Sequence record: PZ445523.1
DNA length: 64,000 nucleotides
From: a phage
Reading direction: 5' to 3' (one strand)
Position 1 is the first letter of the stretch, and each line of letters opens with the position of its first letter. Both the position numbers and the translations under genes were made by a program. The notes under the pieces were generated by a model. It searched no databases, was not told the origin of the DNA, and worked only from the letters and a program-made list of their open reading frames with translations. This document shows positions 8,435 through 32,283 of this stretch, one piece after another.

Positions 8435-8905
8435 TTAATCATGTGTCCACCCCTCATCGGTATTTGACCAAAGTCGCTGATTATCTGATCCTCGCCACAG
8501 CTTTTTGGTAGGAAGATTTTTCTCATACTTCCCATCAATAATAACATCAACATATTTAAGCATTTCTAGTTGTTTAATATCTTCAAACTTATATCCTGTC
8601 CACAACCAAATGCTTTTATTGGGATAAAGATTTTTAATAGTTTGAACCACAGAGTGAATCACGTCTCTGTTATCAGGATAAAGAGGGTCTCCTCCAGTTA
8701 TAGTTAATCCTTCTATATAATCATTATTCAAACATTCAATTAATTGCTCTAGTGTTTCACCAGTGAATGGAATGCCATTTCTAGCATTCCATGTTGATTT
8801 ATTATAACACCCTTCACATTTATGCAAACAACCTGTAACGAAAAGAACGACCCTGCAACCAGGGCCATTCACAAAATCGCAAGGATAAAATCTATCATAA
8901 TTCAT
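8435..8905 (-). CDS. nrdG: Anaerobic ribonucleotide reductase activating enzyme (radical SAM)
   Basis: 156 aa; CxxxCxxC radical-SAM cluster (CLHKCEGC); matches T4 NrdG; start overlaps nrdD stop. Confidence 0.92.
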   Translation of the reverse strand: MNYDRFYPCDFVNGPGCRVVLFVTGCLHKCEGCYNKSTWNARNGIPFTGETLEQLIECLNNDYIEGLTITGGDPLYPDNRDVIHSVVQTIKNLYPNKSIWLWTGYKFEDIKQLEMLKYVDVIIDGKYEKNLPTKKLWRGSDNQRLWSNTDEGWTHD

Positions 8906-10719
8906 TGGTGTTTAACCCTATGCATGATTTCTTTATTTTTACCGAGATTAAATCCGCGTTCGTTCGGATTTCCCAAATAACCACATGTTCTTCTTATTGT
9001 GTTCATCTTTTTAGGATCAGTTTCTCCACAAATAGAACAAACAAATCCGTTTTCAGTAGGAGTCATTTCATGGGTACTTCCGCATGTAAAACATTTATCT
9101 ACCGGCATGTTAACACCAAAATAATCTAAATGTTGTGCAGCATAATCCCATACGGCCTCAAGACCTTTTAAGTTATTTTTCATATCAGGAAGTTCAACAT
9201 AAGAAATGTGACCACCTGTCGCAATGAAATGATATGGTGCTTCGCGGGAAATCTTTTCAAACGGAGTAATATTTTCTTCTACTGAAACATGGAAACTGTT
9301 AGTGTACCAGCCTTTATCGGTAACATCTTTTACGCTTCCATATTTTTCGGTATCGAGTTTACAGAAGCGATAACAAAGGTTTTCAGCAGGAGTCGAATAT
9401 AAACTAAAAGCAAATCCGGTTCTTTCAGTCCACTGTTTAAGATGAGCATTCATTTTAGTTAAAATTTCTCGTCCAATATCACGACCGACAAGAATATTCA
9501 ATTCGTGAATACCAATGTATCCTAAAGACACTGAACTTCTACCATTTTTAAATAACTCAATTATGTCGTCATCAGGTTTAAGACGAACCCCGAATGCACC
9601 TTCTTGGTAAAGAATAGGAGCAACAGTTGCTTTAACTCCTTTTAAGGAACTAATTCTACACATCAAAGCTTCAAAACACAAATCCATTCGTTCATTAAAT
9701 AGCTCAACAAATTTCTGTTCATTGAACTGTGTTCCAATATAAGAATCTAACGCGATGCGAGGAAGATTCAGTGTTACAACACCAAGATTATTACGTCCAT
9801 CAAGAATTTCATTGCCAGTCGAATCTTTCCATACGCTCAAGAAACTACGGCAACCCATTGGAGAAACAGGAACAGATGAACCAGTGATAGCTTTATTGTT
9901 CTTAGCTGAAATAATATCAGGATACATCCTTTTGCTTGCACACTCTAGAGCAAGCTGTTTAATATCATAGTTCGGATCGTCTTTATAAAGATTAACACCT
10001 TCTTCAACAAACATAACAAGCTTAGGGAAAATAGGAGTTATCCCATCACGACCAAGACCTTTAATACGATTTTTCAGAATTGCTTTCTGAATCATTCGTT
10101 CAGTCCAGTCAGTTCCCGTACCAAATGTAATTGTTACAAAAGGCGTTTGTCCGTTTGAACTAAAGAGAGTATTTACTTCATATTCATAAGCTTGGAATGC
10201 ATCGTATACGTCTTTTTCTGTTTTAGATTGAGCATAATTCAACGCATCGGCGATTTGCCATTTTTCTGCATCCTCAATGTGTTTTGCATAGGTGCGTTTA
10301 ACATAAGGAGAAAGTACTTTATCTACATTCGCAAAAGTCGTTCCGCCGTATTGGTGAGAAGCAACCTGCGCAGTAATTTGTGCCATAATCGCAGTAGCAA
10401 CGCCAATTGATTTAGGGGTTTCAATCTGCGCATTACCTAGCTTAAATCCGTTCTCAAGCATTCCTTTTAAATCTACTAAACAGCAATTAGTAAATGGAAG
10501 AGCAGGGGAATAATCAATATCGTGGAAATGGATAATTCCGCTTTCATGTGCTTTCATAATAAAAGACGGGACCATATTTTTGGCAATGTGTTTAGACACA
10601 ATACCAGCCATAAGGTCCCGTTGAGTTGGAAAAACACGAGAATCTTTATTAGCATTCTCGTTTAAAAGGTCTTTATTAGTTTTATGAATCAATCCTTCAA
10701 TTTCTTTTTCAATTGTCAT
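8902..10719 (-). CDS. nrdD: Anaerobic ribonucleoside-triphosphate reductase (class III RNR), uninterrupted
   Basis: 605 aa continuous ORF; C-terminal glycyl-radical region and Zn-ribbon cysteines (CFTCGSTHEMT...CSICG); length matches spliced T4 NrdD. Confidence 0.95.
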   Translation of the reverse strand: MTIEKEIEGLIHKTNKDLLNENANKDSRVFPTQRDLMAGIVSKHIAKNMVPSFIMKAHESGIIHFHDIDYSPALPFTNCCLVDLKGMLENGFKLGNAQIETPKSIGVATAIMAQITAQVASHQYGGTTFANVDKVLSPYVKRTYAKHIEDAEKWQIADALNYAQSKTEKDVYDAFQAYEYEVNTLFSSNGQTPFVTITFGTGTDWTERMIQKAILKNRIKGLGRDGITPIFPKLVMFVEEGVNLYKDDPNYDIKQLALECASKRMYPDIISAKNNKAITGSSVPVSPMGCRSFLSVWKDSTGNEILDGRNNLGVVTLNLPRIALDSYIGTQFNEQKFVELFNERMDLCFEALMCRISSLKGVKATVAPILYQEGAFGVRLKPDDDIIELFKNGRSSVSLGYIGIHELNILVGRDIGREILTKMNAHLKQWTERTGFAFSLYSTPAENLCYRFCKLDTEKYGSVKDVTDKGWYTNSFHVSVEENITPFEKISREAPYHFIATGGHISYVELPDMKNNLKGLEAVWDYAAQHLDYFGVNMPVDKCFTCGSTHEMTPTENGFVCSICGETDPKKMNTIRRTCGYLGNPNERGFNLGKNKEIMHRVKHQ

Positions 10720-27569: not shown

Positions 27570-28107
27570 TTACTATTTCCAAAAGTTTATTATTTTTAAG
27601 GTAATTAGCCTTTTCTAGGACTTCAGAAGCATATTTAGAACCAGCTTTAACATTCCATCCCGAATTATAAGAGGATATTGCTTTTCTTATATCGCCCTTA
27701 TGTATATTTAACCAATAAGAAAGTTCAATGTACGCCCAGGAAGCTGAATTGGATCGTTTATTCAACATTCTTTTTATTTCAGCATCGGTCATATTATAAC
27801 CAAGTTCCTTAACTCTTGCTCGCATAGTAGGCAAATAATTTTGGAACATTCCATAGGCGTGATGCTTTGGTTTAGATTTTAAATTAACTCCGCCAGAGCT
27901 TTCTTGCCATAAAATAGCAGCCATTATATGACCTAATCCGCTCTTGTGGATATTTTTGTGTGTTTTATATTTTCCATCCTTAGAAAATTGTTCCCCGAAT
28001 TGATACGCGTAACGCATGTTATCGAGTTGGACATTACTGAAAGTATGCTCGGAGCTATGTGCCATCATTGAAATGGCCAATAGACCAGCGAGTAGTGCTT
28101 TTCTCAT
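27562..28107 (-). CDS. Secreted lytic transglycosylase-like protein (SLT domain)
   Basis: Signal peptide; SLT-type motifs WQESSGG (catalytic Glu), YGMFQ and SSYNSG. Confidence 0.55.
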   Translation of the reverse strand: MRKALLAGLLAISMMAHSSEHTFSNVQLDNMRYAYQFGEQFSKDGKYKTHKNIHKSGLGHIMAAILWQESSGGVNLKSKPKHHAYGMFQNYLPTMRARVKELGYNMTDAEIKRMLNKRSNSASWAYIELSYWLNIHKGDIRKAISSYNSGWNVKAGSKYASEVLEKANYLKNNKLLEIVND

Positions 28108-28114
28108 GCTTACC

Positions 28115-28576
28115 TCATTGAGTTTTAATTACTGCTTTAGAAGCCTTTCCTGGTAAACGACGACTGTTGATAATTGCCATCCTACATTGAAGTGACGGGT
28201 CTTTGAACTTCTCGTTAGGTTTACAAACTGTAAATCCAAGCCAAAGATTTCCATCTGTGATTTCTAAACGTCCAGGACGATATTCAACCCCATCAATAAA
28301 ATCCTCATCAATGTCAGGACGCGGAGGCATACTCAGGAATTCATTAACTTCTAAAACATGGTCTTTTATTTTATGGAATAATTCAAAAACGTATGTCTCA
28401 TCAATCTCCCGTTGAATTGCACGATCAAGAAGATGCTGAGAATATTTTAGATGAAACGATGAGACCCCTGCTGCTTTTGATGCCTCACGAATCTCATTGT
28501 TAATTTGACGAAACTCCGACTCAAAGTGACGACGAAGCTTATTTCGACGGATAAAAACTTCAGTGTTGATAGTCAT
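28115..28576 (-). CDS. regB: Sequence-specific endoribonuclease RegB
   Basis: 153 aa; sequence matches T4 RegB (MTINTEVFIRRNKLRRHFESEFRQINNEIREASKAAGV...). Confidence 0.92.
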   Translation of the reverse strand: MTINTEVFIRRNKLRRHFESEFRQINNEIREASKAAGVSSFHLKYSQHLLDRAIQREIDETYVFELFHKIKDHVLEVNEFLSMPPRPDIDEDFIDGVEYRPGRLEITDGNLWLGFTVCKPNEKFKDPSLQCRMAIINSRRLPGKASKAVIKTQ

Positions 28577-28604
28577 GTTATTCTCCTCTTAACTGATAGG
28601 AAAA

Positions 28605-28633
28605 TTATACCACAGCCAAGAGGAAAAGTAAAC
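28605..28633 (-). promoter_or_regulatory. Early promoter upstream of regB
   Basis: Minus-strand GTTTAC, about 18-nt spacer, TATAAT; then AAGAGGAGAA and the regB ATG. Confidence 0.55.
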
Positions 28634-28635
28634 AG

Positions 28636-28914
28636 TTATTCTTTAAATCTAATCAATTTATTCATAGACTTTGAAACTTCTGCACGAACCTCATGTAAGT
28701 TTTTGAGCTGTTCAAGACGCTGCTCATAGTAAGCAATTTCATCTTCTTCGAGACAGTCCTGTGAATCTTCTTTAAGATAACGTGCATAGTCCTGGAAAGC
28801 TTTACGAACTACTTCCTGGAAGTCATCAAGACTTTGAATTTTCTTAGGAGCAACAGATACACGACGAGGGGCAGTATAATACTCATAACCAAACCCTGCG
28901 CTTAATTGAGCCAT
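28636..28914 (-). CDS. Hypothetical protein (about 92 aa; vs.3-position)
   Basis: Start reset to [13 protein letters not shown] (overlap coupling with upstream stop). Confidence 0.4.
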
Positions 28915-29228
28915 TAGTATTTTTCCTCGGGTTGGAAAATGGAACGACACGCCCACATGCTTGCTTCTTTCAGACGGTCAATCGCGTTACGAATCTGGGT
29001 GATGCGTTCATGAGCCTGGTCCAGTTCTTGTTCAGAAACTTCTTTGGTATCCAAGTTCATATAATAGGTAACATGTTCATCTTCCAGAGCTTTAAACATT
29101 AACCCAAGACGAACTTCAGCATCTTTAATAGCATTCACTTTACCAATTTTGTCATCGGTATGCGGTTTATAACCTTTAATATCTTCAATCATATTTGACT
29201 TCCTCGCCAGTACCCAAATCATATTCAA
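28914..29228 (-). CDS. Hypothetical small helical protein (92-104 aa); position of T4 vs.4 (Acb2) by synteny
   Basis: Two genes upstream of the GrcA-like gene, as recalled for vs.4; start ambiguous (M1 or [14 protein letters not shown]); sequence identity not verified. Confidence 0.4.
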
Positions 29229-29406
29229 CTAAACGAATAGGTTCATGAATGCCATATCCTTGAACAGAAATTTCTGTCGTAGGATAAATTCCATCAATAT
29301 CCCCCATATTCCATGCTTCATTAAATTGTTGCTCACCTGAATTACTAAACCATTCAGCGAAAGCATTTAGTACATCTTCAGAACCTTCAATAATTATCTT
29401 TGCCAT
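29185..29406 (-). CDS. Hypothetical acidic protein (73 aa)
   Basis: ORF coupled to the GrcA-like gene upstream. Confidence 0.45.
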   Translation of the reverse strand: MAKIIIEGSEDVLNAFAEWFSNSGEQQFNEAWNMGDIDGIYPTTEISVQGYGIHEPIRLVEYDLGTGEEVKYD

Positions 29407-29768
29407 TATAAGCTCTCGGTAAAGGTACGAGCGATAACGTCGCGCTGCTGTTCCGGAGTCAGAGAGTTAAAGCGAACTGCATAACCGGATACACGGATGG
29501 TCAGCTGCGGATATTTTTCCGGATGCTTAACTGCATCTTCCAGGGTTTCACGACGCAGAACGTTAACGTTCAGGTGTTGACCACCTTCAATTTTAACTGT
29601 AGACTGTGGCTCAATTTCAATTTCACGGGCATGTAAACCGTAGAAAATTTCTGGGTCTACAAAAGAGTCCTCTTTAAAGGTTTTAGAGACAATAATTCGC
29701 GCTTGAATACCATCTTCAAAATAAATAGTACCTTTATGCGTGCCTTCAAGAATTTGATATGCTTTCAT
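29406..29768 (-). CDS. Autonomous glycyl-radical cofactor (GrcA/YfiD-like)
   Basis: C-terminal 60 aa nearly identical to E. coli YfiD, including the glycyl-radical motif RVSGYAVRF. Confidence 0.85.
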
Positions 29769-29774
29769 ATAACC

Positions 29775-30155
29775 TCAATTAGAAAATAAATTTATCCAAG
29801 ATTGTTCTTTAATTAAAAATGGCTCAGAATCATATGCCATTAAACTTTGCGTAATTAATCCTTTAAAAGGTCCATCAATAAATTCCATGGTAAAATATGG
29901 AATTTTATTCATTAGCTGCGCGTTAGGAGCAGTGCACAAAACTCTGCATCCTTTGAATACACCCTTTTGTAATTTGTATTGCTTGGGATAAAATTCGCTC
30001 AAAATGTTGTTATTTGCCAAAATTTCAAAATGATTCACCAATTTATTTTTAATAGTTTTTGGTGAAAAATAAAGATATTCGAAAAGTTGCGCATCTGTCA
30101 TCATTGCATTCCGATTACGAAAAACTGTGGACGAGTAATACCACCAATACAACAT
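29775..30155 (-). CDS. Hypothetical protein (126 aa, start uncertain)
   Basis: ORF on the early strand; alternative start at MMTDAQLFEY. Confidence 0.45.
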   Translation of the reverse strand: MLYWWYYSSTVFRNRNAMMTDAQLFEYLYFSPKTIKNKLVNHFEILANNNILSEFYPKQYKLQKGVFKGCRVLCTAPNAQLMNKIPYFTMEFIDGPFKGLITQSLMAYDSEPFLIKEQSWINLFSN

Positions 30156-30688
30156 TTACTATTGCAACAGTACTGTACAGTGTCAATATGAGCATCATAA
30201 ATCTTATCCATATCAGGAGATTTGACAGGCTCATCAATTATATATAAAATTCGCGAAAGCGATAAACCTCTGAACTTGCTTCCTTTATTACCAATAAAAC
30301 TGCGCACAGAATCAGTAAATAAACGAAAACGTATATCATTATTAGAATAACGCGAAAATTCCTTTTTGATGTTATTTGCAGAAATTTTAGCGTAAGCTGA
30401 AGTATTAGAAAGAACAATAACTGTTCCGCCATCATACAGCCAATTAGCAGCAAAGTTAGTCACAGCAATTGATTTACCGGATTGACGTCCACCATCTATA
30501 CGAAGTGTGCAGTACTGTTTAAGTAATTCTTCAAATGGCGGGATATATTCGTTTTTACAAATTTCTTCTACTCTAGCATCAGAATGGTGTGTAAAAGCAT
30601 TCATCAGGGATAGATAAGGACCAGTTAAAAATGTTCTCATTTTATTCTCTCTAAATTTGGGCCATTCCATGGCGCATGAATTGTCCAT
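30101..30688 (-). CDS. Small P-loop NTPase-like protein (start uncertain)
   Basis: Walker A-like GGRQSGKS and Walker B-like ILYIIDEP. Confidence 0.45.
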   Translation of the reverse strand: MDNSCAMEWPKFRENKMRTFLTGPYLSLMNAFTHHSDARVEEICKNEYIPPFEELLKQYCTLRIDGGRQSGKSIAVTNFAANWLYDGGTVIVLSNTSAYAKISANNIKKEFSRYSNNDIRFRLFTDSVRSFIGNKGSKFRGLSLSRILYIIDEPVKSPDMDKIYDAHIDTVQYCCNSKCCIGGITRPQFFVIGMQ

Positions 30689-30793
30689 TTCTGTATTTAC
30701 CCATTACCGCACTCAGGCTCGACCTTATTACAGGTTGGCGGGAATCCCTCATAGAATCATGAGGTCCAGGTTGTTCCCATATTTCTTATTTGC

Positions 30794-31267
30794 TTATTTG
30801 AATGATTTAACGTACTGAATAGAACCTTTACTATTCACAAAGGCAATTTTACCATTTTTGTTATACATGGTAGCAGTACGCTGATAGCCATAAGTTTGTT
30901 TACCAGATTGATAACCAACTAATGCAAAATTATCTTCGCCCATTTTATTCTGCTTAGCGCGGATACGTTCATGACCGTGCGCCATAAGAACCTTAGCGTC
31001 GCCAGTTGCAATGGATCTACGAGTTTTTTCATCTTCAACTGTATTAACAAAGTCGTCAAATGAATCAAATTTAGCATGAGATTTATTATACAGTTTTCCA
31101 TCTACTGCATAATTATATCCCTGTACATCCATCTCAACTTCTGTACCATCATCCAATACAGCAGTGATTTTTTGACCTTTTTTAAATTTCAAAAGATCAG
31201 TAAAAGATTCAGCAATAATTTGAGAATTAATAGCTGCTTCAGTAATAAATTCTTGATATGTTTTCAT
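30794..31267 (-). CDS. Internal-protein-like capsid-targeted protein (157 aa)
   Basis: N-terminal capsid-targeting leader MKTYQEFITE followed by AA, as in T4 IPI/IPII/IPIII; payload unrecognised. Confidence 0.6.
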   Translation of the reverse strand: MKTYQEFITEAAINSQIIAESFTDLLKFKKGQKITAVLDDGTEVEMDVQGYNYAVDGKLYNKSHAKFDSFDDFVNTVEDEKTRRSIATGDAKVLMAHGHERIRAKQNKMGEDNFALVGYQSGKQTYGYQRTATMYNKNGKIAFVNSKGSIQYVKSFK

Positions 31268-31276
31268 ATGTTTCCT

Positions 31277-31693
31277 TTAAATGTAAATATTTTTACCGTA
31301 ATACTTGTACCAATGTGGTTTCATTAAAATTTTTTCATCAAGTCGTTGTTGACTCAATTTAATAGCTGATTTGCATGGATTATAATCATTTTTCCATTCT
31401 ACTGGAATATCGCTGATGTCAGGAACTTCAGTATCTTTTATACTGAACCCGCGTTTTAAGCATTCCGTTATAATGTCTGATTGACGCTTTCGCAAAAATT
31501 CTAACTTATCGTAAAAGAAAGTAACATGACCAGAACCTAAAATAAACTCGGAAGATATTTTAAAATCTTTAACCCGCTTACCATTTGCCACATGTTTACG
31601 AACTATACCAAAAACACGCGGCAATTCACGGTATTCTGCGATTAAATGTTGATCAGCAAGTTCAGATACTAAAGTCAAATTAATACGAGTCAT
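31277..31693 (-). CDS. denV: Endonuclease V (pyrimidine-dimer DNA glycosylase)
   Basis: 138 aa; about 75 percent identical to recalled T4 endo V ([17 protein letters not shown]..). Confidence 0.93.
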
Positions 31694-31716
31694 TTTATCC
31701 CTCCAAGTAACTGTGA

Positions 31717-31748
31717 ATATACTATCACAATTCTAGGAGAAAGTAAAC
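31717..31748 (-). promoter_or_regulatory. Early promoter upstream of denV
   Basis: Minus-strand GTTTAC, spacer, TAGTAT/TATATT, then GGAGGG and the denV ATG. Confidence 0.45.
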
Positions 31749-31752
31749 AACT

Positions 31753-32283
<531 letters not shown>

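Follow-up and report, generated by a model that had tools for sequence, protein, structure and literature searches.

An open reading frame on the minus strand of the phage sequence PZ445523.1 (64,000 nucleotides were analyzed, hereafter the window) is identified by sequence comparison as the gene of a phage-borne autonomous glycyl radical cofactor of the GrcA/YfiD type, namely Vs.6 (Y06I) of Tequatrovirus. The protein very probably works as a GrcA-type repair part for host pyruvate formate-lyase (PflB) that has been cleaved by oxygen. Vs.6 as a GrcA-like spare part has been known since 2001, and finding it here is in itself ordinary; in addition, its gene is a mosaic in DNA, with a 3' half that resembles the grcA gene of the host.

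Identification of the vs.6 gene product

The coordinates of vs.6 and of the surrounding features are listed in Table 1; the earlier note on this DNA had given no strand for the frame, which runs from an ATG to a TAA on the minus strand according to the list of open reading frames of the window. The Pfam family Gly_radical (PF01228) matches residues 60-101 with an E-value of 1.8e-18 and 67.4 bits (cutoff 22.2). This match covers the terminal part of the family only, and no other Pfam domain was found in the protein. A phmmer comparison with all PDB chains led to E. coli GrcA/YfiD (6owr_A, E 1.2e-40), and residues 58-120 could also be aligned to residues 697-759 of PflB (63 residues, E 4.7e-26). 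Between residues 60-120 of the phage protein and residues 67-127 of GrcA there is a single mismatch, I60, which is a valine in GrcA; the near-identity of the C-terminus to YfiD/GrcA, including the RVSGYAVRF motif, had been noticed in the earlier note and is borne out by this alignment. Judged by these scores, the match to GrcA lies far above chance.

The predicted radical site is Gly95, equivalent to G102 of GrcA and G734 of PflB. This glycine of the RVSGY motif, whose conservation the earlier reading had presupposed, is invariant over 16 aligned sequences (11 from phages and five from bacteria), and the RVSGYA motif is likewise invariant among the aligned homologues. Moreover, PHROG 1209 matches the protein over its full length (E 2e-62), and the best NCBIfam match is TIGR04365, "spare_glycyl" (E 3.3e-45). 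This last match begins at residue 20 and, at 153.4 bits, falls short of the equivalog cutoff of 170 bits because the N-terminal half has diverged. Overall, Vs.6 is a small stand-alone protein of the 14-kDa class (approximately), the C-terminal half of which is a glycyl-radical domain, and it resembles GrcA-type proteins in its size, in the position of this domain, in having the glycine and in imitating the C-terminal part of PflB from about residue 693 to 759, with its strand, radical loop and helix.

Table 1. Positions of vs.6, its parts and related features in the window.
Feature	Position	Strand	Basis
vs.6/Y06I orthologue, GrcA-like, 120 aa	29406..29768, stop included	-	ORF list, Pfam, PDB, T4 orthology, PHROG
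vs.6 3' half, glycyl-radical domain (gene nt 179-363, aa 60-120 + stop)	29406..29590	-	blastn to grcA
vs.6 5' half	29591..29768	-	no DNA alignment with E. coli grcA; GC 0.35, GC3 0.24
GGT codon of Gly95, predicted radical site (= GrcA G102 = PflB G734)	29484..29486	-	phmmer offsets, alignment, sequence
Shine-Dalgarno GAGG, 4 nt before the vs.6 ATG	29773..29776	-	read from sequence
nrdD (class III ribonucleotide reductase)	8902..10719	-	Pfam NRDD E 2.1e-171, Gly_radical E 1.2e-25
nrdG (radical-SAM activase of NrdD)	8435..8905	-	Pfam Fer4_12 E 7.2e-49, Radical_SAM E 1.2e-07
vs.4-position gene	28914..29228	-	Pfam Acb2/Tad1 hairpin domain, E 1.1e-15
vs.7, mechanical ORF, 126 aa	29775..30155	-	PHROG match from residue 18 onward
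vs.8 homologue, 195 aa	30101..30688	-	weak large-terminase match (phrog_2, E 2.9e-06)
DUF7412 gene, 157 aa	30794..31267	-	E 5.7e-96
denV	31277..31693		
e	31753..32247		

Comparison with T4 Vs.6 and with bacterial glycyl radical proteins

The closest known counterpart is Vs.6 of phage T4 (Y06I; UniProt P13316; NP_049730.1), which is identical to the window protein in 118 of 120 residues (98.3%), and which has the same length, start, strand and neighbors (vs.7 upstream; vs.5, vs.4 and regB downstream). In the T4 reference genome NC_000866.4, vs.6 is T4p117 and bears the RefSeq name "autonomous glycyl radical cofactor GrcA", in agreement with the proposal of the earlier note that the frame encodes a GrcA/YfiD-type spare part. 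The two differences are S56, which is a proline in T4, and R73, a histidine in T4; E. coli GrcA also has arginine at this position.

E. coli GrcA/YfiD (P68066; PDB 6OWR) has the architecture of Vs.6, that is, a variable N-terminal half followed by a structured glycyl-radical domain, and both proteins have the radical glycine and the C-terminal helix. The N-terminal half of Vs.6 is seven residues shorter and weakly similar (MKAYQILEG... in Vs.6 versus MITGIQITKAANDD... in GrcA). Furthermore, grcA is a stand-alone chromosomal gene located between ung and eamB in E. coli, whereas vs.6 lies in an array of phage early genes. In PflB (PDB 2PFL/1H16), residues 697-759 form the same fold element with the same RVSGYAVRF motif, but the enzyme also has a catalytic barrel of approximately 700 residues and the Cys418/Cys419 pair, both of which are absent from Vs.6. 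The short forms GrcA2 and GrcA3 (NCBIfam NF008341 and NF038360; about 80 residues) match the radical domain of Vs.6 with E-values of 4.6e-27 and 5e-31, respectively; their profiles, of 78-80 positions, cover residues 58-120 only and have no counterpart of the N-terminal half, and Vs.6 scores under both cutoffs.

The possibility that Vs.6 is a pyruvate formate-lyase proper was considered and rejected, as its 120 residues compare with a barrel of roughly 700-800 residues and it reaches 88.6 bits with TIGR01255, for which the cutoff is 994. The label "pyruvate formate-lyase" carried by many phage records is a misnomer.

The N-terminal half

The head of the protein, encoded by the 5' half of the gene, has a signature of its own, ...ARVIVSKT..ED, which recurs among the T4-like phages and jumbo phages of the sample and, in a looser form, in one T5-like phage. 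Its resemblance to the bacterial counterpart MITGIQITKAANDD...EARC.AK..AED is loose, and the phmmer alignment to GrcA reaches back to residue 22, at low identity. The elements common to the Vs.6 head and YfiD are Q5, the AR.IV.K stretch, the ED pair and R48, also at low identity; in the alignment of 16 sequences, Q5 and R48 are the only head positions that are invariant with bacterial GrcA. Of the two parts of YfiD, residues 1-60 are disordered and residues 61-127 repeat the C-terminus of PFL; the N-terminal half promotes binding to cleaved PFL and installation of the radical but is dispensable for catalysis (PMC8683613). As the N-terminal half of the phage protein is so divergent, its mode of binding or regulation could differ from that of YfiD. 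This phage-specific half represents a ready-made variant for probing what the disordered N-terminus of YfiD does.

Genomic context

Judged from the neighboring genes, the window belongs to a T4-like phage (Tequatrovirus). Genes of T4 type include e (lysozyme), denV (Pyr_excise), regB, the Macro-domain gene tk.4, tk, the endonuclease VII gene, pinA, nrdD and nrdG, and around vs.6 a stretch of 1.2 kb matches many Tequatrovirus genomes at 94-95% identity. The order denV ... vs.8, vs.7, vs.6, vs.5, vs.4, regB is that of T4. Two differences from T4 were found between e and vs.8: the genes ipII/ipIII, which lie between e and denV in T4, are absent from that place in the window phage, and a DUF7412 gene lies between denV and vs.8.

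Both ends of vs.6 overlap with neighboring elements. The TGA stop codon of vs.7 (29775..29777) overlaps the Shine-Dalgarno sequence of vs.6, and the TAA stop codon of vs.6 overlaps the ATG of vs.5 at 29406 (TAATG). Both overlaps point to a compact array of co-directional genes that would be translationally coupled. A promoter scan of positions 28500..31800 returned 11 promoter-like sites against 11.6 expected from shuffled sequences, with no excess, and the sole terminator-like match in the same region lies on the wrong strand, inside vs.6. No RNA family was found in an Rfam scan of positions 28000..31500.

Some observations concern the neighbors themselves. The gene at the vs.4 position, two genes downstream of vs.6, encodes an Acb2/Tad1 hairpin domain, and T4 Vs.4 is prominent in a paper on CBASS anti-phage defense (PMC10097602); an apparent counter-defense gene adjoins the metabolic spare part vs.6. 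For vs.7, the mechanically defined frame is longer than the region matched in PHROG, and an ATG at 30104 overlaps the stop codon of vs.8 as ATGA, as in T4; this ATG is probably the true start, which would give a protein of 109 residues. The vs.8 homologue contains the sequence GGRQSGKS, which by eye looks like a P-loop.

Mosaic structure of the vs.6 DNA

Two parts of different character meet abruptly at gene nt 178/179 of vs.6. The 185 nt on the 3' side (the tail) are 97.3% identical in blastn to grcA in each of the 5426 complete E. coli genomes (5426/5426), and no DNA alignment with E. coli grcA was obtained for the 178 nt on the 5' side (the head). GC content and GC3 are 0.50 and 0.46 in the tail, versus the lower values of the head given in Table 1. 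In YfiD the structured domain begins at residue 61 (PMC8683613), near the point that corresponds to this junction.

To compare phages and bacteria, a core of 171 nt (gene nt 181-351) was used. Identity of this core to E. coli grcA is 98.8% for the window, 99.4% for T4 and 100% for Mosigvirus RPN187, while the window core is 82.5% identical to grcA of Salmonella and 88.9% to that of K. pneumoniae. Among bacteria, the E. coli grcA core is approximately 92% identical to that of Citrobacter amalonaticus, 87.7% to that of K. pneumoniae and approximately 83% to that of Salmonella. At synonymous sites the three phages diverge from E. coli by 0-0.05, compared with values of 0.30 in Citrobacter and 0.58 in Salmonella. 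Moreover, the heads of the window gene and of RPN187 differ by 13% (pS 0.33), whereas their cores differ at two sites (Fisher p = 0.002, synonymous sites). A longer conversion tract in Mosigvirus (nt 155-384, 91.8% in BLAST) was considered and discarded, as it is a low-identity extension of a match in which near-identity starts at about nt 200.

The Jiaodavirus phages of Klebsiella have heads that are 69-72% identical to the window head and tails that are K. pneumoniae-like; in phage Nispero, for example, the tail matches K. pneumoniae grcA at 97.1% and E. coli grcA at 87.1%. A total of 77 phage records match K. pneumoniae grcA at 95-99%, nearly all of them named as phages of Klebsiella or Raoultella. 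The amino-acid variants of the tails are those of the host: phages of E. coli have LEDAVKH and those of Klebsiella LLDAVEH. The 5' halves, in contrast, group by phage taxonomy. For Salmonella grcA, no match to a phage exceeded 95%, and the tails of RB49 and of the T5-like, Aeromonas, Morganella and Erwinia phages are 64-81% identical to any of the sampled bacterial grcA genes. On these identities, host tracking by vs.6 tails is not universal.

The simplest reading of these comparisons is that the segment encoding the radical domain has been replaced from host to phage independently at least twice, and probably three or more times. It is likely that grcA of the current host repeatedly overwrites the vs.6 tail by gene conversion, and that the 5' half is inherited vertically. 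No description of the grcA/vs.6 mosaic at the DNA level was found in the searchable literature, which excluded Wagner 2001 and the T4 genome review. If selection drives tail replacement, the spare part must closely match the PflB/PflA system of the host; if replacement is neutral, the tails offer a natural read-out of how frequently T4-like phages recombine with host chromosomal DNA. The mosaic provides a compact natural example, within one gene, of recurrent flow of DNA from the host chromosome to a lytic phage, a modest evolutionary curiosity that may merit follow-up.

Proposed role during infection and alternative explanations

YfiD and T4 Y06I, of about 14 kDa, are the only two validated spare parts of this kind (Andorfer et al. 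2021, PMC8683613). According to PMC8683613, which cites Wagner et al. 2001 (BBRC 285:456), the PFL activating enzyme (PFL-AE) installs a radical on both YfiD and T4 Y06I, and each of them forms a complex with O2-cleaved PFL and restores its function. In the case of GrcA, transfer of the radical from G102 to C419 of PflB is supported in vivo (PMC12338860). The earlier note had made its reading depend on expression of the gene, and in T4 the orthologue is transcribed early and its protein is detected, being classed as "early RNA, middle protein" in a time-resolved omics study (PMC9697503 supplements). Nolan et al. reported in 2006 that vs.6 is conserved in 6/6 T4-like genomes and matches Gly_radical (PMC1524935). 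By tblastn, we found a homologue in 1,589 phage records, of which 1,539 cover at least 80% of the query; among the carriers are phages of T4-like, T5-like and jumbo type that infect Escherichia, Salmonella, Klebsiella, Aeromonas and further hosts. Between phage copies, pN is well below pS, and vs.6 is under purifying selection.

The repair role that we favor would proceed as follows. In a fermenting infected cell, oxygen transients would cleave active host PflB at its radical glycine, G734. Vs.6 would bind the cleaved enzyme, probably aided by its N-terminal half, if this half acts as that of YfiD does, and the host radical-SAM activase PflA would remove a hydrogen atom from G95, after which the Vs.6 radical domain would stand in for the missing C-terminus and pass the radical on to Cys419, so that the reaction of pyruvate and CoA to acetyl-CoA and formate could be restored. 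T4-type phages shut off host gene expression, and therefore the host could no longer make new PflB or GrcA. A spare part made early by the phage would keep fermentative energy and the supply of acetyl-CoA going, which is the in vivo benefit that we infer for the phage under microaerobic infection. The searchable literature yielded no report of how a vs.6 deletion behaves in vivo. On the repair reading, T4-like phages invest in host fermentation where oxygen is low, as in the gut, and do so alongside an anaerobic ribonucleotide reductase (RNR) of their own.

The presence of that reductase gives rise to a different explanation, in which Vs.6 serves the class III RNR of the phage and acts in nucleotide and not in pyruvate metabolism; it would either replace the radical domain of O2-cleaved NrdD or be a partner or substrate of NrdG. 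The window phage does encode both NrdD and NrdG, as the earlier note had stated in placing the spare part alongside a class III RNR, but the two genes lie approximately 19 kb from vs.6 and are not adjacent to it. In two distant phages the homologue is located within the nrd cluster: in Aeromonas phage PX29 (locus L088, 3001..3378) the order is nrdD-nrdG-vs.6-nrdC-nrdH, and in Erwinia jumbo phage pEa_SNUABM_47 (locus L090, 2823..3185) the homologue lies between nrdD and nrdG. In addition, Nolan et al. 2006 proposed a role in nucleotide metabolism from the Pfam match (PMC1524935). Nevertheless, BLASTP of Vs.6 against the window NrdD gave no significant similarity (E 2.7), and the C-terminal motif of this NrdD is RRTCGYLG and not RVSGYAV. 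All 11 phage homologues (11/11), those in nrd clusters included, retain the PFL/GrcA-type motif and the C-terminal helix, and the published biochemistry uses PFL-AE and PFL (PMC8683613). The link to NrdD was thus rejected as the primary function of Vs.6, in view of the distance and the lack of BLASTP similarity, and we regard service to the RNR as very unlikely. We read the location in the nrd clusters of PX29 and pEa_SNUABM_47 as pointing to co-regulated genes of an anaerobic lifestyle and not to a common mechanism. A "ribonucleotide reductase subunit" annotated beside the homologue in the T5-like Salmonella phage SE24 was discarded as a case of synteny, since it is a split annotation: two CDSs, of 198 nt and 156 nt, together cover the one match.

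It could also be argued that Vs.6 acts against host fermentation, as a decoy that titrates PflA or occupies PflB and so damps or redirects the pathway, e.g., formate production. The half that governs binding and activation in YfiD is phage-specific and weakly GrcA-like in Vs.6, and the score of the protein is under the GrcA equivalog threshold, both of which would fit such an action. However, a decoy would need neither the catalytic glycine nor the whole interface, whereas the radical domain of Vs.6 is near-identical to that of host GrcA; moreover, the effect reported for T4 Y06I is a return of activity to cleaved PFL and not an inhibition (PMC8683613). A decoy function is, in our judgment, highly improbable. 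Finally, vs.6 might have no function and be carried along as a piece of host grcA gained by recombination, and the 97-100% DNA identity of its 3' half to E. coli grcA and the host-like GC content are as expected from a recent capture. Against this, the open reading frame is intact, has a ribosome-binding site and is probably coupled in translation to its neighbors, and full-length copies occur in roughly 1,500 genomes of phages that belong to several families. In addition, pN/pS is low even in the phage-specific head (window versus RPN187: pN 0.076, pS 0.333), and the T4 protein is made during infection (PMC9697503) and is reported to be active in vitro (PMC8683613). These results make a passenger gene extremely improbable.

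Observations on further homologues and sequence records

Several PLSDB "plasmid" records containing grcA have a length of about 5 Mb, and as this is the size of a chromosome, they are probably mislabelled. In Klebsiella aerogenes NCTC10006 (LR134122.1; locus L094, 200..583), grcA contains a frameshift after ...HPEK and is annotated as a truncated "pyruvate formate-lyase"; the frameshift is probably a sequencing error. In the homologue of Morganella phage MP1 (locus L092, 789..1190), the C-terminal domain (NVMNREMLLEAMEDP...LTKEQQ...M) is PflB-like at positions where PflB and GrcA differ, and for this reason the donor may have been pflB in some phage lineages.
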